A stretch of DNA of 64,000 nucleotides from Methanocaldococcus sp. 16A. Its GTDB lineage: Archaea; AGJL01; Methanococci; Methanococcales; Methanocaldococcaceae. This document shows positions 3,192-63,105 of the stretch, piece by piece. Under the pieces are notes generated by a model. It ran no database searches. It saw only the letters and a program-made list of their open reading frames with translations, and was not told the origin of the DNA. Both the position numbers and the translations under genes were made by a program. Location: the NCBI GenBank assembly GCA_049860595.1, contig CP187551.1. One strand, written 5' to 3'. The first letter of the stretch is position 1, and every line of letters begins with the position of its first letter.

Positions 3192-3373
3192 GAAATTTTT
3201 AATAAAATTGATATTAATAAATGTATAAAAAATTAATCTAAAAAAATTTTAATTGCTTATTAGGTTATTAGATTTTTTAATACTAAAGTTTGTAATGATA
3301 AATCATGACAATTTTATCTATAAAAATAGTCCAAACTACTCTCTTTTTTTTATGTCTGTAAATTTTCGTTAAT

Positions 3374-3544
3374 TTAAAATAAAATAGGTGCAATTGCAGA
3401 GATTATAATTAATCCAGCTAATACATACCCCATGATTTTTGTAACTTCACTACCAGTATATGACCTTGTCAAATCTTTCTTTATGTTATTTAATTCTTCA
3501 AATTCTTTATCATTCACATGTAAATATTGCATCTTTGCATTCAT
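3374..3544 (-). CDS. Small 56-aa tail-anchored membrane protein (not in ORF track)
   Basis: MNAKMQYLHVNDKEFEELNNIKKDLTRSYTGSEVTKIMGYVLAGLIIISAIAPILF; GAGGTGA RBS just upstream, BRE/TATA at ~3597-3610, C-terminal hydrophobic helix. Confidence 0.7.
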   Translation of the reverse strand: MNAKMQYLHVNDKEFEELNNIKKDLTRSYTGSEVTKIMGYVLAGLIIISAIAPILF

Positions 3545-3719
3545 AATTTCACCTCACGTTACATGTTTTTCTCACTTATATAATTGAAAAAAGTAGTATA
3601 TATCCTTTTTTGCTCATGAACAATCATGACAAATGTTTTTAATGAAAAATAATGACAGATTGTTTTTAATCTATAATGATAAATCATGATAAATTCAATA
3701 ATAAAAAATTAACATTTCA

Positions 3720-4108
3720 TAACATTCTCTTGTTAGTTTTTGGATTATCACGTTAAAAGATTTTATTTTTTAATTTAAAGATTTTTAAATAGTTATTTTT
3801 TTATTTTAAGGATTTTTATGGAATTTCTAAGGGTAGTTTATTTTTAATATTTTATTTATTTGGATATATTAAATTAATTGGATTTTTTTAGAAATTTTGG
3901 ATTATTGTTTTTAGATTTTGATTTCTCCAATAGGTAAGTTAATTTTTTAGTTAAGAAGTTTTATTTTTTCTTTTATTTTCGAGCCGTAAAGTATTTATAT
4001 AAGAAGAGGGTTTATAAACAGACCAAGTAATTGAGGGGTTGTAATATACTACTAATAAAATAAAGACCTAAAAATGCTTAATTTTTGTTAATCTGAAATT
4101 AGTCTCCT
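3720..4108 (+). promoter_or_regulatory. CRISPR leader (AT-rich, non-coding); left boundary approximate
   Basis: ORF-free AT-rich region next to the first repeat; TATA-like TTTATATA at ~3994; the degenerate repeat lies at the opposite end of the array. Confidence 0.7.
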
Positions 4109-7100
4109 ATTAAAATCAGACCGATTCGGTATGGAAACATCATGATATTACTTGAGATAGTTATAGATAGATTAAAATCAGACCGATTCGGTATGGAAAC
4201 GTAATGTTACATCAGAATTTGAAATTAATTAAAATCAGACCGATTCGGTATGGAAACTTGAACGTTAGAGATAGCTGCAGCTATAATGATAATTAAAATC
4301 AGACCGATTCGGTATGGAAACGCTGAAAGTCTTAAAAGAGCTTCTAATTGTCTTGCAGTTATAGATATGATTAAAATCAGACCGATTCGGTATGGAAACG
4401 TTTGGGGAGTTGCAAATGCTGTATTGTATGCTATGCTTTCCATACCGAATCATTAAAATCAGACCGATTCGGTATGGAAACGATTTTAATTCAGACATAA
4501 AATACTATCCGGATTATACTAATTAAAATCAGACCGATTCGGTATGGAAACCTCAAAAACTCATCACTATATTTTTTAATTAAATCTATTAAAATCAGAC
4601 CGATTCGGTATGGAAACTATAAAAGAGTTCTTAAAAGAGCATCCTGACTTAGATTAAAATCAGACCGATTCGGTATGGAAACGACAATCAGATAACATAA
4701 GCTCTTCAAACTATACTAATTAAAATCAGACCGATTCGGTATGGAAACATCCAATCAATATGAATATTGAAGTAGTTAAAAGGTATTAAAATCAGACCGA
4801 TTCGGTATGGAAACCAAATTCTTTAGTTCCTTTTTCAATTGACCATTTTTTCATATTAAAATCAGACCGATTCGGTATGGAAACGGAGCTAAAGTTGCAT
4901 TAGAGGGATAAGTTATGGAATTAAAATCAGACCGATTCGGTATGGAAACTTAGTTATGATTGCTGTAGTGGTTAAATTCAAAAACCATTAAAATCAGACC
5001 GATTCGGTATGGAAACTAAATTAGACTTGGTAGACCTCCAACAATTACCGACGCATTAAAATCAGACCGATTCGGTATGGAAACTTTATCTAAATACTCA
5101 AACGAAGAAATTATGCATTTTCTCATTCATTAAAATCAGACCGATTCGGTATGGAAACTCAACGAGGTCTGGAAGCTCTTTACAGAAGTTTCTATTAAAA
5201 TCAGACCGATTCGGTATGGAAACGGAAGCTCTGGATTTTTATTATCTATAACAAATATGTATATTAAAATCAGACCGATTCGGTATGGAAACTACGCTAA
5301 AGGAAGATTAGATGACTATTCAAGATTTTTATTAAAATCAGACCGATTCGGTATGGAAACTTGATAGAAGAGAAACGTACTATATTGCAGGCTGGAAACT
5401 AATTAAAATCAGACCGATTCGGTATGGAAACGAAGGAAGGTATTTCATTTTTTCCATATTGTTAATTTTAGATTAAAATCAGACCGATTCGGTATGGAAA
5501 CAGAATTTGATAAATTTGGCAGTTCTAATATTGATAATGTATTATTAAAATCAGACCGATTCGGTATGGAAACCTTGCAGTTCATCTAAAATAGCAACAA
5601 TCTCATCTTTATTAAAATCAGACCGATTCGGTATGGAAACACTTACGAGCCAAATTTGATTCTAACGCAACAAATCTATTAAAATCAGACCGATTCGGTA
5701 TGGAAACTCAGGATATCTCTTTTTTGAACATACGCCCATAAATCTACCTTATTAAAATCAGACCGATTCGGTATGGAAACTTTATTACTGCATATATTGG
5801 TATGGTGGTGTTATTTATTAAATTAAAATCAGACCGATTCGGTATGGAAACGAACTTTCATCTTTAGCGTAGATTATAGTTTCTTGCTTTAATTAAAATC
5901 AGACCGATTCGGTATGGAAACTGAAAAAAGCAATATTACTTTTATTTATTTTAGGCATTGTATTAAAATCAGACCGATTCGGTATGGAAACAAGTATATG
6001 TTTAGCAATTTCTTTATCCTTTCCTTTTTCATTAAAATCAGACCGATTCGGTATGGAAACACGATAAACATCACTGGAGAATACCACCACGATATCATTA
6101 AAATCAGACCGATTCGGTATGGAAACAGGATTAAGATAAAATACTTCGATAAGCTCGAAGGAATTAAAATCAGACCGATTCGGTATGGAAACAGCACTCA
6201 TAGCAGAATTGCAGAAGAACATTACAAATTAAAATCAGACCGATTCGGTATGGAAACGGAAATGTTAGGATTGCTATGAATTTTCCAGGAATGAACAATT
6301 AAAATCAGACCGATTCGGTATGGAAACTTGTTAAGAAATTCATGGCAGACGAGAATGAGAAAAGAATTAAAATCAGACCGATTCGGTATGGAAACAGTAA
6401 GGATTCCAGGGCTTGGTTTGGCAAAAAATGATTAAAATCAGACCGATTCGGTATGGAAACATTTTATGGTTATTAGTTTGGATAGTGATTTTAATTATTA
6501 AAATCAGACCGATTCGGTATGGAAACGACAATGTTGTCATTGGCTGGAACTGTAGTTCCTGAATTAAAATCAGACCGATTCGGTATGGAAACGTAAAAAA
6601 CATACTAATGTCAAACATGCAGTTAAAAATTAAAATCAGACCGATTCGGTATGGAAACATAATAGCCGCAGTTGTAATAATAGCAATATGCTTCAATTAA
6701 AATCAGACCGATTCGGTATGGAAACGAATATTCAGTTTCTGAAGTTTATGAAGCTGTCAATAAATTAAAATCAGACCGATTCGGTATGGAAACATGCAAC
6801 CAATGCAACAATTTCAACCTCAACAACAATCACAACAATTAAAATCAGACCGATTCGGTATGGAAACTTGTTAACACCCTCCGACACTAACATAATTGTA
6901 GCTAATCAACCATATTGATTAAAATCAGACCGATTCGGTATGGAAACTGCTTTAGACTAAACCATCTAAGTCCAACTTTAGTTAGAGCATTAAAATCAGA
7001 CCGATTCGGTATGGAAACTCTTCATCTTGCTTAGTCCATTTTTTATATTTTACAATTAAAATCAGACCGATTCGGTATGGAAACCAAATCTTCTTTTAAG

Positions 7101-7363
7101 TGGTTTATTATGTCTTCCTTATTAAAATCAGACCGATTCGGTATGGAAACGGTGTTAATTTTTCTGCTGTCTTTTTAGCAGTCTCTTTTGATTAAAATCA
7201 GACCGATTCGGTATGGAAACGAATTAATAAAGTTGTTGTTTGAAGACAAGTTTAAGATTAAAATCAGACCGATTCGGTATGGAAACTTGTCCCTCATACT
7301 TATTCTATTATCTCCAATACTAATTGTATAAACATTAAAATTAGACTTTTTCGGTAAAAAAAC
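4109..7363 (+). CRISPR. CRISPR array, 30-bp repeat ATTAAAATCAGACCGATTCGGTATGGAAAC; 47 intact + 1 degenerate terminal repeat, 47 spacers (27-52 nt); no cas genes in window
   Basis: Repeats counted by hand from 4109 to 7257; terminal copy ATTAAAATTAGACTTTTTCGGTAAAAAAAC at 7334-7363. Confidence 0.99.
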
Positions 7364-7406
7364 GTAAATTTATTTTTCAAAATATTATAAAAAAATAGAA
7401 TATTTT

Positions 7407-8501
7407 TTAAATTCTTCTATACTTATAAAATATTCTACATGTTCCTTCATCAGAAACCATACAACTACCAATTGGATTTAATGGTGTGCAAACCTTACCA
7501 AACAATGGGCAATCAGTAGGAAGTTTTTCCCCTCTCAAAATTTTATCACATATACAACCCTTAGGAATCTTTTCTTTAATCTCTGGAATATCCTCATGTT
7601 CATAGATGTCAAATTTCTTATATTCTTCTCTCAACCCAAATCCACCATTTTTAATAACTGGAAATCCTCTCCAAGGAATATCTACACTTTCAAAAACTTC
7701 ATTTATTATTTTTTGAGCTAAAACATTTCCTTCAGGTTTAACAGCTCTTATATACTCATTCTCAACCTTTGCCTCTCCATTGATAATTTGTTTTAAAATC
7801 ATAATTATTGCCATTAAAACATCTATTGGCTCAAAGCCAGCAACAACCATTGGGGCGTTGTATTTTTTGCATGGCTCATAGTATGGCTTTAAACCTGTAA
7901 TTGTTGAAACATGTCCTGGGCATATAAAGGCATCTAAATAAACTTCCTCATTTAATAAAAAATCCATAATTGGAGGGGTTTGTCTGTGACAGTTTAAAAT
8001 GAAAAAGTTATCTATATCTTTATTTTTTAAGCTTATTAACTCAGCTCCAGTTGTAGGAGCTGTAGTTTCAAAACCTATTGCTACAAAAACAAACTTCTTA
8101 TCTTTTTCTTTTTTAGCCATTTTTACAGCTTCACTTATACTATAAACAATTCTAACATCACAACCTTCAGATTGCTTCTCCATTAATGATTTTTCACTTC
8201 CCGGCACTCTATACATATCTCCAAGAGTTGTTATAACATATCCATTATCAGCTAAATATATGGCTGTATCTATTTCTTTTTGTGTAGTAACACAAACTGG
8301 ACAGCCTGGACCTGGAACAACGGTTATATTTTTTGGCAATATATCCCTAATTCCATATTTACAAATAGTATGTTCATGACTACCACAAACGTGCATAATC
8401 TTTATGTTATCTATTTTTTCAGAGAGTTTGTTTATCTTCTCTATAGCTTTCTTTATTAAGGTTCTGTCATTTATGTTAATCATCTTATTACCTCTCTTCA
8501 T
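7407..8501 (-). CDS. hypD: Hydrogenase maturation protein HypD
   Basis: MHVCGSHEH, GPGCPVC, GFETTAP, PGHVS, C-terminal CMVS.EG.C. Confidence 0.97.
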   Translation of the reverse strand: MKRGNKMININDRTLIKKAIEKINKLSEKIDNIKIMHVCGSHEHTICKYGIRDILPKNITVVPGPGCPVCVTTQKEIDTAIYLADNGYVITTLGDMYRVPGSEKSLMEKQSEGCDVRIVYSISEAVKMAKKEKDKKFVFVAIGFETTAPTTGAELISLKNKDIDNFFILNCHRQTPPIMDFLLNEEVYLDAFICPGHVSTITGLKPYYEPCKKYNAPMVVAGFEPIDVLMAIIMILKQIINGEAKVENEYIRAVKPEGNVLAQKIINEVFESVDIPWRGFPVIKNGGFGLREEYKKFDIYEHEDIPEIKEKIPKGCICDKILRGEKLPTDCPLFGKVCTPLNPIGSCMVSDEGTCRIFYKYRRI

Positions 8502-11502: not shown

Positions 11503-13140
11503 TTAAAATTCATCACCTCCCATGTCTCCGCCTTCTCCGCCTTTCTCGTCTCCTTTAACTTTCTCAGCAGCAATGACATCGTCAATTCTTAAGAGCATGA
11601 CTGATGCTTCTGTAGCAGAGTCAATTGCTTGTGTTTTAACTTTTAATGGTTCAACAACTCCTTTTTCTAACATGTTAACAACTTCTCCTTCGAAGACATC
11701 TAATCCGCAAACTTCTCCTCCTTCTTTCTCGTGAGCAGCTCTTAACTTAACGAGCATGTCAATTGGGTCTAATCCTGAGTTCTCAGCTAATGTTCTTGGA
11801 ATGACTTCTAAAGCATCAGCAAATGCTTTAACTGCTAATTGCTCTCTTCCAGCAACAGTCTCTGCGTATTTTCTTAATCTCTTAGCTAATTCTATTTCAG
11901 TAGCTCCTCCACCAGCAACAATCTTACCTTCTTCTAATGCACACTTAACAACTCCAATTGCATCATCTAAAGCTCTTGCAACTTCTTCAACGACATGCTC
12001 TGTTGAACCTCTTGCTAAGATTGTTACAGCTTTTGGATGCTTGCACTGCTCAACGAATATCATTGCATCTCCAGCAACTTTTCTCTCTTCAACTAATCCA
12101 GCTTCTCCTAAGTCTTCTGGTGTTAAGTCATCAATCTTTGTAACGATTCTTGCTCCTGTTGCTTTAGCTAATTTCTCCATGTCTGATTTCTTAACTCTTC
12201 TTACTGCTAAGATTCCCTTCTTAGCTAAGTAGTGCTGAGCTAAGTCATCAATTCCTTTCTGACAGAAGACAACATTAGCTCCTGTAGCAGCAATCTTCTC
12301 AACCATGTCTTTAATCATTTTCTCTTCTTGCTCAATGAACTCCATTAACTTAGATGGGTCAGTAATTCTTATTTCAGCATCTGTTTCTGTCTCTTTGACT
12401 TCAATTGGGCAGTTTAATAATGCAATCTTAGCGTTTTCAACTTTCTTTGGCATTTGTGGGTTGACTCTCTCTTTGTCAATGACGACTCCTCTTATTAATG
12501 TAGTTTCTTCAATTGGAGCTCCTTCTTTCTTCTCAACTTTAATTAAGTCTTTGTCAACTTTTCCTGTTTCTTCATCAACAACTGCTCTAACAGCTTCAAC
12601 AACAATTTCAGCTAACTGTTCTCTTGCTTTCTCTGCTCCTTTTCCAGTAATTGATGTCATTGCAATTTTCTTTAACATTTCTGTATCATCAGCTTTTATT
12701 TCTTTAGCTATAGCTTTTAATTCTTCAACTGCCTTGTTTCTTGCCATTTCGTATCCATTGATGATGACTGATGGGTGGATGTTTTGGTCTAATAACTCTT
12801 CAGCCTTTCTTAATAACTCTCCAGCAATAACAACTGCTGTTGTTGTACCATCTCCAACTTCTTTCTCTTGTGTTTTAGCAACTTCTATTAACATCTTAGC
12901 AGCTGGGTGCTCAACACTCATTTCTTTTAATATTGTAACTCCATCGTTTGTAACAACAATGTCTCCTAACTCATCAACTAACATTTTGTCCATTCCTTTT
13001 GGACCTAATGTTGTTCTAACTGTCTCAGCGATAATTCTACCTGCTAATATGTTCATTCTTTGAGCGTCTCTCCCGACGTATCTCTTAACATTTTGTGGTA
13101 ATACTACTATTGGGGTTCCTGCCATTGCCATGTGTCTCAC
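11503..13140 (-). CDS. ths: Thermosome (group II chaperonin) subunit
   Basis: [28 protein letters not shown]; strongly biased codon usage. Confidence 0.98.
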
Positions 13141-13264: not shown

Positions 13265-13768
13265 TTAGCATAATTTTTTCAATCTGCCATTATCTAAAAC
13301 AAAGAGTTCAAAACCATACATTTTGGCTTTATTTATAATTTTGCTATCTGCAGATAATAAGCAAAATATTACTTTAACATCTCTATTTGTTGCAATAGGA
13401 TGTTTTTTTATATTATCTATTAAATTTGCTATTTTTCTCATTTTGTTTATTGCTCTTTTTTTATCTGTTTCTATTTCTGCAATTATAACCTCTTTATCAT
13501 TTATAATTACTAAATCTGGTCTAAAACCTAAATTAGAAAGTTTAGTTCCAGAGGATTCTATATATTGATTACCTTTAAATATCTCCAATAATTTCTCCCT
13601 AATATAGCTATGATAGAAACCTTCAGCTCCTACTTTGTCCCCATATATGGCTATTTTTAAATTTTCTATAGCTTTATCTATTGCCTTATTGTTTAATTTT
13701 TCATTTATATCTTCGAGCTCTTTTATTATATTCAATATTCTATTTTTTAATGCTTCATTTCCTTGCAT
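13265..13768 (-). CDS. Putative PD-(D/E)XK-superfamily nuclease overlapping the end of mutS
   Basis: E..YH helix, then FRPDLVII...VIIAEIET (PD...ExE variant); start overlaps mutS stop region by 22 nt. Confidence 0.6.
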   Translation of the reverse strand: MQGNEALKNRILNIIKELEDINEKLNNKAIDKAIENLKIAIYGDKVGAEGFYHSYIREKLLEIFKGNQYIESSGTKLSNLGFRPDLVIINDKEVIIAEIETDKKRAINKMRKIANLIDNIKKHPIATNRDVKVIFCLLSADSKIINKAKMYGFELFVLDNGRLKKLC

Positions 13769-16212
13769 TTTTTCACTATTCTATCTAACTCTATAAGAGC
13801 CTGTATTGGAGTTAAATTATTTGTATCTATATTGGCAATTTCTTTGATTAGGCTATTATCTACCTTAGTATCTAAGGTTTTATATATTTCATAAGCTCTA
13901 TCAACAACTTCTTTAGGTAGAACTAATTCAGCTATCTTTATTCCATAGCTCTCCTTACTAACTCCTCTCCTTATCTTTCTATCAAACTCTAATGTTTCTC
14001 CCTCAATAATTCTAAAGTGGTAATTCTTAACTCCCTCTAATAAGCTCTCAAGCTCTGCTAATTCATGATAATGAGTAGCAAATAATGTCTTAGCTCCTAT
14101 TTTGTGTATATATTCTACAATAGCCCAAGCCAAACTTGTACCATCTCTACTACCTGTACTTTTACCAACTTCATCCAATAGTATTAAGCTCTTACTCGTT
14201 GCATTTCTTAATATTTGTCCTACTTCAGCAATCTCTACCATAAAACTACTATAACCTCTTGTAATATCATCTACAGTTCCAATTCTTGTGAATATCCTAT
14301 CTACAACCCCTATAACTGCATATTTTGCAGGAACAAAACATCCAATTTGTGCCATAATTGTTATTAGTGCTGTCATTCTTAAATATGTAGATTTACCAGC
14401 CATATTTGGACCAGTTATTAATATTATCCTACTATCTCTCGTTAATGTAACATCATTTGGAGTAAATTTAACTGTTAATTCAACGGTAGGATGTCTTCCA
14501 TCCTTTATAATTATATCATATCCATTATTTACTTTTGGTCTTTTGTAATTGTAAAGAACAGAAACTTCTGCAAATGTAGATAATACATCAAGTTCAGCTA
14601 TTTTTAAAGCACAATCTCTTATCTCATCAACTCTCTCAGCTATTTTATTTCTAATATTTATAAAGAGTTCATACTCTAAATTTTTTATCTTTTCTTCACA
14701 TGCTAATATTTTAGTTTCCATTGACTCAAGCTCATCTATAGTATATCTCTCAGAGTTTGCCAAAGTTTGCTTTCTCTTATAATGTTTTGGAACAAACTTA
14801 ATTTTTGATTTTGGCACCTCTATGTAGTATCCCATAACTGAATTATAACTAATCTTTAATTTTTCAATGCCTGTTGCTTTTCTTTCTCTTTCTTCAAGCT
14901 CTTTAATGAATTTCTCATGATTATTTTTAAGTTCTCTTAACTCATCCAATTCAGCTGAAAATCCTTCTTTAATTATCCCTCCATCCTTTATACTTAATGG
15001 AGGGTCTTCCACTATAGCACTATCTATAAGCTCTACAATGTCATTTAATGTTTTTAGTTCTTCAACAATTATATTTAATTTTGTAGAAGTAAAGTTAAAG
15101 TTTTTTATTTCTTCAATAGCTTTTAAAGAATTTTTTAAAGCTATTAAATCCTTTGGTGTGGCTTTTTTATACTCTATTCTACTTACTATTCTCTCAAGGT
15201 CATAAACATCTTTTAAAATCTCTCTAAGATTTTGCCTTAAAAAACTCTTTTCATAGAGTTCTTCAACAGCCTCCAATCTTTTATCTATCTCATCTACATT
15301 TATTAAAGGTCTTTGTAGCCATCTTTTTAATAACCTACTTCCCATTGCAGTCATTGTTTTATCTAAAACTTCAATTAAAGAGCCTCTTCTACTATTATCA
15401 ATTAAGTTTTTAAATATCTCAAGATTTTTCAAAGTAGTGGAGTCTAATATCATATATTCTTTGCTAATATATTTCTGCAATCTAAATTTAAGCTCCTTTA
15501 CCAATAAAGATTCTTTAATGTACTTCAATGCAGCACCACAAGCTATTATAGATTCATTCTCAAGTTCCAAGCTTTTAAGATTTGCAATGCATTCCTCAAG
15601 TAAATTTAAACAGTCCTCTTTTTTGTAATAATCTTCACTTAGAGGATGAACTACAGGAATATGTTTCTTTATTTCTTCCAAATTCTCAAAATCTTTTGGT
15701 AAAATACATTCAACTGGAGTAAATTTTAATATTTCAGCTATAACTTCCTCAAAACTATCTACAGTTGTAGTTAAAAATTCCCCAGTAGATACATCAATTA
15801 ATGCAATCCCAAACTTACAGCCTTTATATATAGAGATGAGATAGTTGTTCTCTTTAGTTAATAGCTCTTCCTCAATTAATGTTCCTGGAGTTATAACTCT
15901 AACAACTTCTCTTTTAACTAAACCCTTAGCTTTTGAAGGGTCCTCAACCTGCTCACATATAGCTACAGTATAACCTCTCTCTATCAACCTCTTTATATAT
16001 GGGAATACTGCATGATGAGGAACACCAGCCATTGGGTGCTTTTTATCCCTTGATGTTAAAACAATACCGAGCTCTTTAGAGGCGATTTTTGCATCTTCAT
16101 CAAAAAGCTCGTAGAAATCTCCAACTCTGAAAAATAGTAATGCATCTTTATATCTCTCCTTAATCCTATAATATTGCCTCATCATTGGAGTTAAGTTGGC
16201 CATAATAATCAC
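13747..16212 (-). CDS. mutS: DNA mismatch repair protein MutS (MutS1 type)
   Basis: TPMMRQY, FFRVGDFYELF (Phe-X-Glu mismatch motif), TGPNMAGKST Walker A, SSFMVE, LLDEVG, FATHYHEL, SYGI, C-terminal LTPIQAL. Confidence 0.96.
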   Translation of the reverse strand: MIIMANLTPMMRQYYRIKERYKDALLFFRVGDFYELFDEDAKIASKELGIVLTSRDKKHPMAGVPHHAVFPYIKRLIERGYTVAICEQVEDPSKAKGLVKREVVRVITPGTLIEEELLTKENNYLISIYKGCKFGIALIDVSTGEFLTTTVDSFEEVIAEILKFTPVECILPKDFENLEEIKKHIPVVHPLSEDYYKKEDCLNLLEECIANLKSLELENESIIACGAALKYIKESLLVKELKFRLQKYISKEYMILDSTTLKNLEIFKNLIDNSRRGSLIEVLDKTMTAMGSRLLKRWLQRPLINVDEIDKRLEAVEELYEKSFLRQNLREILKDVYDLERIVSRIEYKKATPKDLIALKNSLKAIEEIKNFNFTSTKLNIIVEELKTLNDIVELIDSAIVEDPPLSIKDGGIIKEGFSAELDELRELKNNHEKFIKELEERERKATGIEKLKISYNSVMGYYIEVPKSKIKFVPKHYKRKQTLANSERYTIDELESMETKILACEEKIKNLEYELFINIRNKIAERVDEIRDCALKIAELDVLSTFAEVSVLYNYKRPKVNNGYDIIIKDGRHPTVELTVKFTPNDVTLTRDSRIILITGPNMAGKSTYLRMTALITIMAQIGCFVPAKYAVIGVVDRIFTRIGTVDDITRGYSSFMVEIAEVGQILRNATSKSLILLDEVGKSTGSRDGTSLAWAIVEYIHKIGAKTLFATHYHELAELESLLEGVKNYHFRIIEGETLEFDRKIRRGVSKESYGIKIAELVLPKEVVDRAYEIYKTLDTKVDNSLIKEIANIDTNNLTPIQALIELDRIVKKCKEMKH

Positions 16213-16461: not shown

Positions 16462-17706
16462 GTGATGTTCCAAAAACCGAGAGGAACAAGGGATTTTTTA
16501 CCAGAAGAAATGAAAAAAAGGAGATTTATTGAAAATAAGTTGAGAGAAGTTTTTGAGAGATATGGATATAAGGAGATATTAACACCAACCTTTGAAAGTT
16601 TTGAGTTAATTGCTAAAAAAACAGGAGAAGAAATTAGAAAACAACTTTATGTTTTTAAAGATCATGGTGGAAGAGAAATGGCTTTAAGACCTGAAATGAC
16701 GTCTCCAGTTGTAAGATTCTATTTAAATGAATTAAAGAATTTACAGAAACCTTTAAGATTATATTATTTTGCTAATTGCTTTAGATATGAGAGACCTCAA
16801 GCTGGAAGATTTAGAGAGTTTTGGCAGATGGGTTGTGAGTTAATAGGTTGTAAAGAACCGTTAGCAGATGCTGAAGTTTTAAATTTAGCGATGGATGGTT
16901 TAATAAATATTGGTTTAGATTTTGATGTTCATATTGGTCATTTGGGAGTTTTGAAGGGTGTTTTAGAGAAGTTTAATGTTAGTGAGGAAGAAGAGGTTAA
17001 AATAAGAAGGTTGATAGATAAAGAGGATTATGAAAATTTAGAGAAATACTTAACTCAAATCTTAGGGGAAGAAAAGAAGGAGCTAATATTTGATATATTA
17101 AAATTTAAAGGAGGAAAAGAGATTTTAGATGAACTAAAAGAGATATTGAAAGATTTCCCAAAATCTATAGAGGCAATAAATAACTTAGAAGAGATTTTAG
17201 AGTATGTTATTCATGATAGATATACAATAAACCTTGGAATTGCAAGAGGTTTGGATTATTATACAGGAATGGTATTTGAGATATATGGAAAGAAAGGAGC
17301 TAAGCAGATATGTGGTGGAGGGAGATATGACAATTTAATAGAAACATTTGGAGGAGAGCCAACACCAGCAGTTGGTTTTGCCTATGGATTTGATAGAATT
17401 ATGATGAATATTGATGACCTAAATATTGAAGAAGAAAATATTTTAATAATCCCAGTAAAAAAAGATAAGGAATTAATTAAAAAATCTCTAATTATAGCTG
17501 ATAAGTTAAGAAAAGCTGGAAAAATTGTAGAACTTGAAATTATGGGTAGAAAGTTAAGAAAAGCTTTGGATTATGCAAATTCGAGAGGATTTAAGAAAGT
17601 AGTTATTGTCGGAGAGAAAGAGCTTAATGAAAATAAAGTAACTTTAAAGGATATGGTTACAGGAGAGCAGAAATTAATCAACATAGATGAATTAACAAAT
17701 CTCTAA
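16462..17706 (+). CDS. hisS: Histidine--tRNA ligase
   Basis: [43 protein letters not shown]. Confidence 0.98.
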
Positions 17707-61119: not shown

Positions 61120-63105
61120 GTGGTGGGATATATGAGTGAAACTTTATTTAAAGAATTTAAAGAACATTCAGTAGCTGAATTTTTTAGAAAAAATAAACAT
61201 ATGCTTGGATACAGTGGAAAGATTAAGAGTTTAACAACTATAATTCATGAATTGGTTACAAACAGCTTAGATGCTTGTGAAGAAGCTGGTATTTTACCAG
61301 ATATAAAAGTTGAGATTGAGAAGTTGGGAGCAGACCACTATAAAGTGGCGGTTGAAGATAACGGTCCAGGAATTCCTTTAGAATTTATTCCAAAGGTATT
61401 TGGAAAGATGTTAGCAGGTTCTAAGATGCATAGGTTTATTCAATCAAGAGGACAACAGGGAATTGGAGCTGCAGGAGTTTTGTTATTCTCTCAAATAACA
61501 ACAGGAAAGCCATTAAAGATTATAACTTCTACTGGAGATGGCAATATTTATGAAGTTGAAGTAAAGATGAATGTAGAGAAAAATGAAGGAGAAATTGTTT
61601 CAAAAAAAGTTAGAAAAGGAAAGTGGAGAGGAACAAGAGTAGAGGGTGAGTTTAAAGAAGTTAGCTACAATAGAGGAGAGTCTGGACCTTTTGAATATTT
61701 GAGGAGAATAAGTTTAGCTACACCACACGCAAAAATTATATTAAAAGACCCTTATGGAGAGGTTGTATTTGATAGGGTTGTTAATGAATTACCAAAAAAA
61801 CCAGAGGAAATGAAACCCCATCCTTATGGTTTAACTACTGATGAACTTTTATACATTGCAAGAAAGACAAAATCAAAGAAAGTTTCTTCAATGCTTGTCT
61901 CTGAGCTTTCAAGAGTTACAACAAAAAGAATTAAGGAGCTTTCTACTTATATACTTAGAGATTTGATATTAAAGAAATTTAAAGACAGTATATTTTGGAG
62001 CATGGTTGTTTCCTGTTATTTAGATATTGATATTGAGGGCTATTTAAGTAGATTTAAAGATTATATTAGTAATGATGAGATAGATACAGTTAAAATGTTA
62101 ATTAAAAACCTTCCAGAGAGCTTAGATGAGTTAAAGAGATACGCTTTAAAATATGTAACAATGGAATATTTATTTAATAAGCTAAGTGAAGAAGAAATTA
62201 ACAAAATAAAGAATCACTTTAAAAAAATCCCAGAAAACTTTATGGAATGGGCTGAAAAGAACTATTTATCAGCTACAGTTGTTGATGAATTAAACAAAAA
62301 AGTTAAAAACATTGTAAAACCGCCAGAAAACTTTATTGCTGAAATAAAAAATAAAGGGTTAATATCAGATGAAGAACTAAGAAAATTTGAAGAAGAGGTT
62401 AAAAAAATCTTAAATAAAAATCCTAAGGAATTGACTTGGGATGAGGCGGAGATGATTGTTAATTGCCTACAGAGTATGGAATTCATGGCTCCACCAACAT
62501 CTGGCTTAAGACCAATAGGAGCAGAGAATATAGAAAAATCATTAAAAGAACTTTTACAGCCAGATTTTGTTAAGGCAATTACAAGAAATCCAAAAACTTA
62601 TAAAGGAGGAATACCATTTGCTGTTGAAGTAGCAATAGCTTATGGTGGCAATGCAGGAAGGCAGAGTGATGAAGGAAGAAGAATGGAGATTATGAGATTT
62701 GCCAACCATGTCCCTTTGCTATATGATGCCTCTGCTTGTGGTTTAACTAAAGCTGTGAAAAGCATAAACTGGAAGAGGTATGGGTTGAGAGGAGAAGAAG
62801 CTCCAATAACAGTGTTTGTTAATTTAATATCCACCTTTATACCTTACACTTCTGCAGGAAAGCAGGCAGTTGCTTGCAGTGAAAATGAAAATGAAGAGAT
62901 TTATAATGAAATTAGACATGCATTGATGATTTGTGGTAGAGAATTAGAGAAATATTTATCAAGAATTAGAAGAGAGGCTGAAGAAGAGAAAAAGAGAAAG
63001 TATGTTATGAAGTATGCAAAAATATTTGCTGAGGCATTGGCTAATATACTAAATAAACCAGTTGATGAGATTGAGGAAAAAGTTGTTAAGTTGTTAGAAT
63101 CATAA
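61120..63105 (+). CDS. top6B: DNA topoisomerase VI subunit B
   Basis: [42 protein letters not shown]. Confidence 0.97.

Follow-up and report, generated by a model that had tools for sequence, protein, structure and literature searches.

The 64,000-nucleotide stretch of Methanocaldococcus sp. 16A analysed here (contig CP187551.1 of assembly GCA_049860595.1, hereafter the window) carries a two-gene module in which a mutS gene of the MutS1 type is followed, with a short overlap, by a small gene encoding a predicted nuclease of the PD-(D/E)XK fold. This module probably serves MutS-guided, MutL-independent incision of DNA at mismatches. A sequence-only reading of the window had proposed that MutS recognises mismatches or heteroduplexes and recruits the small nuclease directly, whether for repair, anti-recombination or defence; the computational analysis supports the partnership of MutS and nuclease, while recruitment, nuclease activity and the choice among the three roles are what we infer from it. 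Three findings had been named as refuting that proposal, namely a canonical mutL elsewhere, small-ORF homologues unlinked to mutS and the lack of a nuclease fold, and the check for each of them turned out in favour of the proposal. No description of a MutS1 coupled to such a nuclease was found in full-text literature searches, whose coverage did not extend to subscription journals.

The mutS gene is intact. Its product matches the Pfam domains MutS_I to MutS_V, every one of them above cut-off, as well as both NCBIfam MutS1 equivalogs (NF003810 at 968.8 bits with a cut-off of 480, and TIGR01070 at 912.9 bits with a cut-off of 641.7). Across 44 aligned MutS proteins the residues G31, D32, F33 and E35 of the G-D-F-x-E mismatch-binding motif (GDFYE in the window) are invariant, as are G601-P602-N603 and G606-K607-S608-T609 of Walker A and D680-E681 of Walker B. 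Judging from these domains and residues, the window MutS is a complete MutS1 with all the hallmarks of a genuine mismatch sensor, and a genome search shows that it is encoded by the sole MutS-family gene of its genome. Its translation start is likely to lie at an ATG at position 16203, three codons past the GTG that opens the frame; this ATG is preceded by a GTGA-type ribosome-binding sequence and gives a product of 818 amino acids (aa), which is also the form of the identical database protein P0007. A C-terminal clamp-binding motif of the QxxLF type is common in the MutS1 family, though not universal. The short clade to which the window protein belongs has lost it: Q-x-x-[LMIVT]-F is found within the last 130 residues of none of the 32 clade members, as opposed to five of the 12 other aligned MutS proteins, and the linker before the last helix is short throughout the clade. 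The very short linker without a QLSLF-type motif, already remarked upon in the sequence-only reading, is thus a property of all 32 proteins. In one 85%-complete Methanocaldococcus metagenome-assembled genome (MAG), G009, the mutS gene is split on the minus strand of contig G009:C26 (locus L021; 4404-5075 and 5465-6880) into open reading frames (ORFs) of 471 aa for the N-terminal and 223 aa for the C-terminal piece, with ~390 nucleotides (nt) between them and an intact small nuclease ORF; this is either a decaying gene or the product of assembly errors.

The two genes are interlocked at the level of single codons. On the minus strand the mutS ORF comes first and the small ORF starts 22 nt before the mutS stop codon, the TG of its ATG being supplied by a cysteine codon near the MutS C-terminus (KKCKE). 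In the alignment this cysteine is present in 28 of the 32 short-clade MutS proteins and, because its codon holds the TG of the small-ORF start, the overlap itself is conserved; an overlap of 22 or 25 nt recurs at loci L017, L018, L019, L020, L024, L025, L026 and L027. Such an arrangement suggests translational coupling of mutS and the small ORF. No RNA sequencing runs carrying the cassette are listed, and a single hydrothermal-vent metagenome run contains a small share of its sequence words.

The small protein belongs to a tiny family. A search of 1.84 billion cluster representatives returned 10 proteins at E <=0.001, eight of which are 158-176 aa long; the two others are long proteins that look like coiled-coil noise and were rejected. 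None of the database matches was seen away from mutS. Seventeen aligned relatives share 24-94% identity with the window protein, and L18, A33, I34, E49, H53, E71, R83, P84, D85, E98, E100 and K109 are invariant among the 17 small proteins. The E49..H53, R83-P84-D85 and E98-I-E100 signatures, from which a restriction-like nuclease core had been proposed on inspection of the sequence, are therefore all present and, apart from the intervening isoleucine, invariant. An AlphaFold2 model calculated from the alignment of relatives is confident (pLDDT 88.9) and begins with two long helices at residues 2-25 and 28-42, followed by a helix, three strands, a long helix and more strands; D85 lies just ahead of strand 2 and E98-x-E100 closes strand 3, the strands on which the catalytic signature is to be expected. 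In this model the protein has the alpha-beta-beta-beta-alpha-beta core of the PD-(D/E)XK nuclease fold, and the best Foldseek matches are the nickase N.BspD6I, NucS and Card1, with E values of 1.5e-3 to 5e-3 that would be marginal alone. By sequence, the Pfam models NucS_C and MutH gave no match to the small ORF at E values up to 1, PDDEXK_10 is matched by five of the 17 relatives, and a sequence-profile search of the PDB yielded nothing significant. A search of the ESM Atlas returned only unnamed clusters with scores of <=0.88 and was not used. As its sequence lies outside the curated families, the small protein is filed as a PD-(D/E)XK fold of NucS-like shape and not as a member of NucS. Prediction of a complex between MutS and the small protein gave scores of 0.39, 0.10 and 0.04, obtained without controls, and counts as evidence neither way.

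The small gene is genetically linked to mutS. The family has strong matches (E 2e-41 or better) in seven of 40 Methanococcales genomes (G000, G003, G006, G009, G010, G011 and G014), and it is these seven, and no others, in which MutS domain I is found. All are Methanocaldococcus, and in each of them mutS and the small ORF are adjacent, with an overlap of 22 or 25 nt wherever both ends are readable. A further match in G026 (E 0.003, within a 404-aa frame) is weak and was treated as unrelated. Among 96 Archaeoglobi genomes the family profile matches 20, and in 20 of 20 retrieved loci the small ORF directly adjoins the 3' end of mutS. MutS domain I is found in 23 of these 96 genomes, 19 of which are cassette genomes; in the twentieth cassette genome, G042, mutS is cut by the contig end. 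The genomes with domain I and no small ORF are G063, G089 and G104, in which mutS is truncated at the contig end, and G095. On metagenome contigs, retrieved with a five-sequence sub-alignment of the family, mutS lies directly upstream of the small ORF in 14 of 15 cases and the fifteenth starts at the contig edge, a sample that is partly dependent, since at least one contig (L158) is the same as that of a MAG locus already counted. Linkage of the small gene to mutS is obligate in all testable loci of two archaeal classes, as would be expected from the direct partnership proposed in the sequence-only reading. One Archaeoglobi MAG, G040, harbours two differing small nuclease genes (G040:C15:9139-9621 and G040:C204:77-607) and represents either a genome with two cassettes or a mixed bin.

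In two genomes the partners are joined in a single chain. The Methanophagales MAG G044 encodes a 1037-aa MutS with a small-protein-like region at residues 843-967, past domain V (BLASTP E 6e-11). The alignment of this region with the small protein starts at the first helix and runs past E-x-E, and E..H, E, R-P-D, E-x-E and K are all retained. A second, independent fusion, an ORF of ~1094 aa in G180, was recovered in a profile search of 79 genomes of the class that holds the Methanophagales MAG; here no MutS was found other than the fused gene, and MutL was not detected. In both fusions the hairpin stands where MutS otherwise has its C-terminal helix region, a hint that this end of MutS is the site of contact. 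A match in G138 (E 1.6e-4) is weak and was treated as unrelated. No fused forms were found by word search among longer proteins, which is weak evidence. Outside the MutS context, no small homologue was found in 401 sampled genomes of the Thermoplasmata class, in which matches to the family profile are weak (E 5e-6 or weaker) and the four best placeable ones sit in 554-aa frames (G574, G582, G598 and G602). Locus L173 (G574:C6, 1366-3024, minus strand) encodes a 552-aa P-loop ATPase (GKTGTGKS) with the nuclease signature of the MutS-coupled protein, E..H, R-R-P-D and E-x-E, in its C-terminus (profile E 5e-6); other ATPases, too, may have acquired the nuclease module.

The customary partners of a mismatch sensor are missing. 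The sequence-only reading had noted that no mutL lies in the window, and this absence extends to the whole genome (1.62 Mb, 99.98% complete), in which MutL_C and DNA_mis_repair have no matches while the same searches were positive in the expected control genomes. The sole MutL TIGRFAM match in the genome (23.9 bits, cut-off 180) is topoisomerase VI subunit B, a GHKL ATPase, and was rejected. MutH (PF02976) and NucS_C are likewise without a match in the window genome, the E. coli control being positive for the former and the control genomes for the latter. MutL is present in none of the 40 Methanococcales genomes and was not found in 95 of the 96 Archaeoglobi genomes; the only one with MutL is G095, in which an 896-aa MutS frame lies right beside mutL and the small ORF is absent. 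Within Methanocaldococcus, six of 10 cassette-free genomes (G002, G005, G007, G012, G013 and G016) have a strong match to NucS (E 3e-51 or better), versus none of the seven cassette genomes, two of which have weak NucS_C-like matches only, in other proteins; four genomes of the genus have neither NucS nor the cassette. The exclusion fits a functional swap of NucS for the cassette, in a comparison that comprises few genomes and close kin. The NucS gene of G002 (G002:C1:435165-435509), a genome that also has no cassette, contains an in-frame TGA that leaves an open frame of only 124 aa, and may be a nucS pseudogene.

The distribution of the module bears the marks of mobility. Database relatives of the window MutS show a sharp drop from at least 61% identity, in proteins of 806-846 aa, to 52% or less, in proteins that are mostly 860-900 aa long. 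The former group comes from Methanocaldococcus, from Archaeoglobus and Ferroglobus MAGs and from vent metagenomes. In a quick maximum-likelihood tree, calculated from the first 780 positions of the alignment, the 32 short MutS proteins form one clade (SH-aLRT 99) in which the seven Methanocaldococcus-type sequences are nested deep among those of Archaeoglobi type; the nesting points to a transfer of the module into Methanocaldococcus from Archaeoglobi-like archaea. The fused protein forms a long branch close to the clade's base, and its placement is unsure. A basal subclade of the short clade, with proteins of 840-845 aa (P0045, P0047 and P0049), lacks the C-terminal cysteine codon that marks the nuclease start.

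Thermosome and hisS, the genes that flank the cassette in the window (Table 1), are direct neighbours in eight of the 17 genomes of the genus, which identifies the cassette as an insertion; mutS adjoins hisS in three (G000, G006 and G011), and the remaining six have neither arrangement within 1.5 kb. The intergenic DNA on the thermosome side of the window aligns with that of cassette-free relatives. An intact MutS1 between thermosome and hisS, interpreted as an accessory cassette, was how the sequence-only reading had described this locus, and both the gene order and the MutS tree bear it out. Elsewhere the pair adjoins an RNase P subunit gene (G003), eIF-6 and TrkH (G010), two transposase fragments and thermosome (G014) or, in Archaeoglobaceae, the ribosomal-protein S13 operon, and this variation in flanking genes shows that mutS and the small gene move as a unit. 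In G014, the closest relative, the transposase fragments (DDE_Tnp_IS240 and DDE_Tnp_1; 3262-3900, plus strand, and 4585-5211, minus strand, of locus L020 on G014:C1) lie just upstream of the cassette, hisS is ~400 kb away and thermosome is still adjacent, which points to a rearrangement at the insertion site. At locus L025 of an Archaeoglobaceae MAG, a 166-aa ORF without Pfam match (6997-7497, minus strand) and an AAA_15/AAA_21 (OLD/AbiEii-like) ATPase gene (7501-8493, minus strand) separate the cassette from the ribosomal-protein S13 operon; neither is present at the related locus L026.

Table 1. The cassette, its flanking genes and the topoisomerase gene in the window; positions are counted from the first nucleotide of the window
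Feature	Position	Strand	Description
mutS (MutS1 type)	13747..16212	minus	821-aa ORF from GTG
Small nuclease gene, 167 aa	13265..13768	minus	N-terminal two-helix hairpin 2-42 and PD-(D/E)XK domain ~50-167, as predicted
Overlap of mutS 3' end and small-ORF start (ATG at 13768)	13747..13768	minus	22 nt
Thermosome gene, flank outside the system	11503..13140	minus	ORF
hisS, other flank outside the system	16462..17706	plus	ORF and synteny
Topoisomerase VI subunit B	61120..63105	plus	touched by the MutL model via the shared GHKL ATPase fold

Mismatch-directed incision by this pair could proceed as follows. A MutS1 dimer would recognise the mismatch via its Phe-x-Glu wedge, make use of its ABC ATPase, and work directly with the small protein instead of recruiting MutL. 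The N-terminal helical hairpin is the likely docking element by which the nuclease would be held on MutS. Once activated by mismatch and ATP, MutS would license cutting, and the nuclease domain, which is predicted to be shaped like the catalytic domain of NucS/EndoMS, would cut at or near the mismatch. The cut may be a nick, or a NucS-like double-strand cut made by a pair of nucleases on the MutS dimer, and excision or homologous recombination would then finish the repair.

A number of observations weigh against this mechanism. The third catalytic position of the nuclease is a glutamate (E100) where the usual residue is lysine, so the predicted activity rests on a less common active-site layout and is not guaranteed. 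Active-site variants with E-x-E do exist in the PD-(D/E)XK superfamily, for example in BamHI, and the invariant K109 on the following helix may compensate for the missing catalytic lysine. A PCNA- or clamp-binding motif is recognisable neither in MutS nor in the small protein, which leaves no visible route to strand discrimination. The similarity to NucS is one of predicted shape: comparison by hhalign of the small-protein profile with six Methanococcales NucS proteins, five of them from this genus, was null (probability 0.17%). The Pfam family AHJR-like (archaeal Holliday-junction-resolvase-like) scores 16.4 bits against the window small ORF, below its cut-off of 26.1, and is matched by 13 of the 17 relatives, always below cut-off and with a best E value of 5.4e-5. 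The complementarity with NucS is not repeated in Archaeoglobi, where NucS_C is found in two of 20 cassette genomes and 14 of 76 other genomes; being rare there with or without the cassette, it makes for an uninformative pattern. The linkage counts include related genomes, which are not independent samples, and a patchy distribution combined with movement between loci would also fit an accessory or defence role. Finally, G044 carries a second MutS together with MutL on other contigs, so that the module is not simply a replacement for MutL everywhere and can coexist with canonical repair.

The same machinery is needed for anti-recombination, or heteroduplex rejection, in which the tethered nuclease would destroy mismatched strand-exchange intermediates of diverged DNA and thereby limit homeologous recombination and gene flow, not correct replication errors. 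This would agree with the lack of a clamp-binding motif tying the module to the replication fork, and with the canonical MutS and MutL that G044 keeps beside its fused gene, which suggest a separate job for the latter. According to a 2021 review, homeologous recombination is limited by canonical MutS and also by NucS (PMC8228993). Nevertheless, we consider it unlikely that this is what the cassette is for: within the genus it resides in genomes devoid of NucS, as expected if it had replaced general mismatch repair, and its sequence shows no feature peculiar to recombination intermediates. Repair and anti-recombination are, moreover, compatible roles.

It is also conceivable, but distinctly improbable, that the cassette is a module of defence or genome conflict. 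The MutS-type ATPase would then detect DNA that is foreign or abnormal, for example modified bases or unusual replication intermediates of viruses and plasmids, and its degradation would fall to the nuclease. Pairing an ATPase with a nuclease is common among defence systems, an AAA_15/AAA_21 ATPase adjoins the cassette in one locus, and a presence in seven of the 17 Methanocaldococcus and 20 of the 96 Archaeoglobi genomes, at several loci and with probable horizontal transfer, is the kind of distribution that such systems would show. However, the small ORF matches 0 families of PADLOC-DB 2.0, and MutS has matches at the P-loop level only (mad8, E 0.0024). The surroundings are not those of a defence island either: of 26 neighbours scanned, 24 either belong to housekeeping functions or match no Pfam family, and the other two are transposase fragments. 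Searches of plasmid and phage collections gave no homologue of the small ORF. MutS keeps all the features of a genuine mismatch sensor. The least probable explanation, namely that the small protein is a nuclease of some other pathway (e.g. one resembling Holliday-junction resolvases) that merely shares a transcript with mutS, or that MutS acts alone and the small ORF is dispensable, can point to AHJR-like, below cut-off, as the protein's only Pfam similarity, and is hard to reconcile with the obligate linkage in two archaeal classes, the two natural fusions and a family so small and never encountered off mutS.

Mismatch incision by a MutS1 and its own nuclease, the reading that we favour, would have parallels in several known systems without coinciding with any of those compared here. 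As in the E. coli MutS-MutL-MutH system, a MutS1 sensor would ultimately be coupled to a small PD-(D/E)XK endonuclease, but the cassette genome has no MutL matchmaker and no MutH-family match, and no Dam/GATC logic is evident; unlike MutH, the cassette nuclease has an extra N-terminal hairpin, its gene overlaps mutS, and in two genomes it forms one chain with MutS. NucS/EndoMS, which serves non-canonical mismatch repair in archaea and Actinobacteria, senses the mismatch via its own N-terminal domain and binds PCNA via a C-terminal motif, whereas the cassette would delegate sensing to MutS. The N-terminus of its nuclease is a 42-residue helical hairpin, a PIP-like motif is present in none of the 17 small ORFs (the NucS proteins of relatives end in ..LDEWL), and both the Pfam NucS_C search and the profile comparison set it apart from NucS. 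MutS2 carries an Smr domain and lacks the mismatch-binding domain I, and MutS7 carries an HNH domain. In both, a MutS-family ATPase is joined covalently or genetically to its own endonuclease and MutL is unnecessary, as proposed for the cassette; the cassette MutS, however, is a true MutS1, in which both domain I and Phe-x-Glu are present, and its nuclease, of predicted PD-(D/E)XK fold, is usually a protein in its own right whose translation is probably coupled to that of MutS. The canonical MutS-MutL system with a MutL endonuclease, as encoded by G095 and at the Woesearchaeota locus L097, uses a homologous MutS1, and the nearest outgroups of the cassette clade are 45-52% identical. Canonical MutS proteins are ~860-900 aa long, five of 12 have QxxLF, and mutL lies nearby in G095 and L097, while the cassette clade is characterised by MutS proteins of 806-846 aa, no clamp motif and a small nuclease gene instead of mutL.

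In the usual account, mismatch repair relies on MutS-MutL or, in the absence of that pair, on NucS/EndoMS. The 2021 review describes these two as essentially mutually exclusive, with a few lineages having neither (PMC8228993). We give about even chances to the broader proposition that the cassette is a third way to start mismatch repair besides these two, in which a MutS1 drives its own NucS-shaped nuclease, coupled or fused, in the absence of MutL or of a recognisable clamp motif; on this proposition the module has spread by transfer among hydrothermal-vent archaea (Archaeoglobi, Methanocaldococcus and the class holding the Methanophagales MAG) and stands in for NucS in Methanocaldococcus. 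This raises the question of how, with no clamp-binding motif, such a system would choose the strand or avoid lethal breaks. If the proposition is true, the module offers a minimal thermostable system, of two proteins or a single chain, for studying the path from mismatch recognition to DNA incision, and possibly a reagent for mismatch-directed cutting. It would also mean that a true MutS1 can act on a nuclease directly, with no MutL in between, and that the cassette fills part of the gap left by MutS-MutL and NucS in hyperthermophilic archaea.

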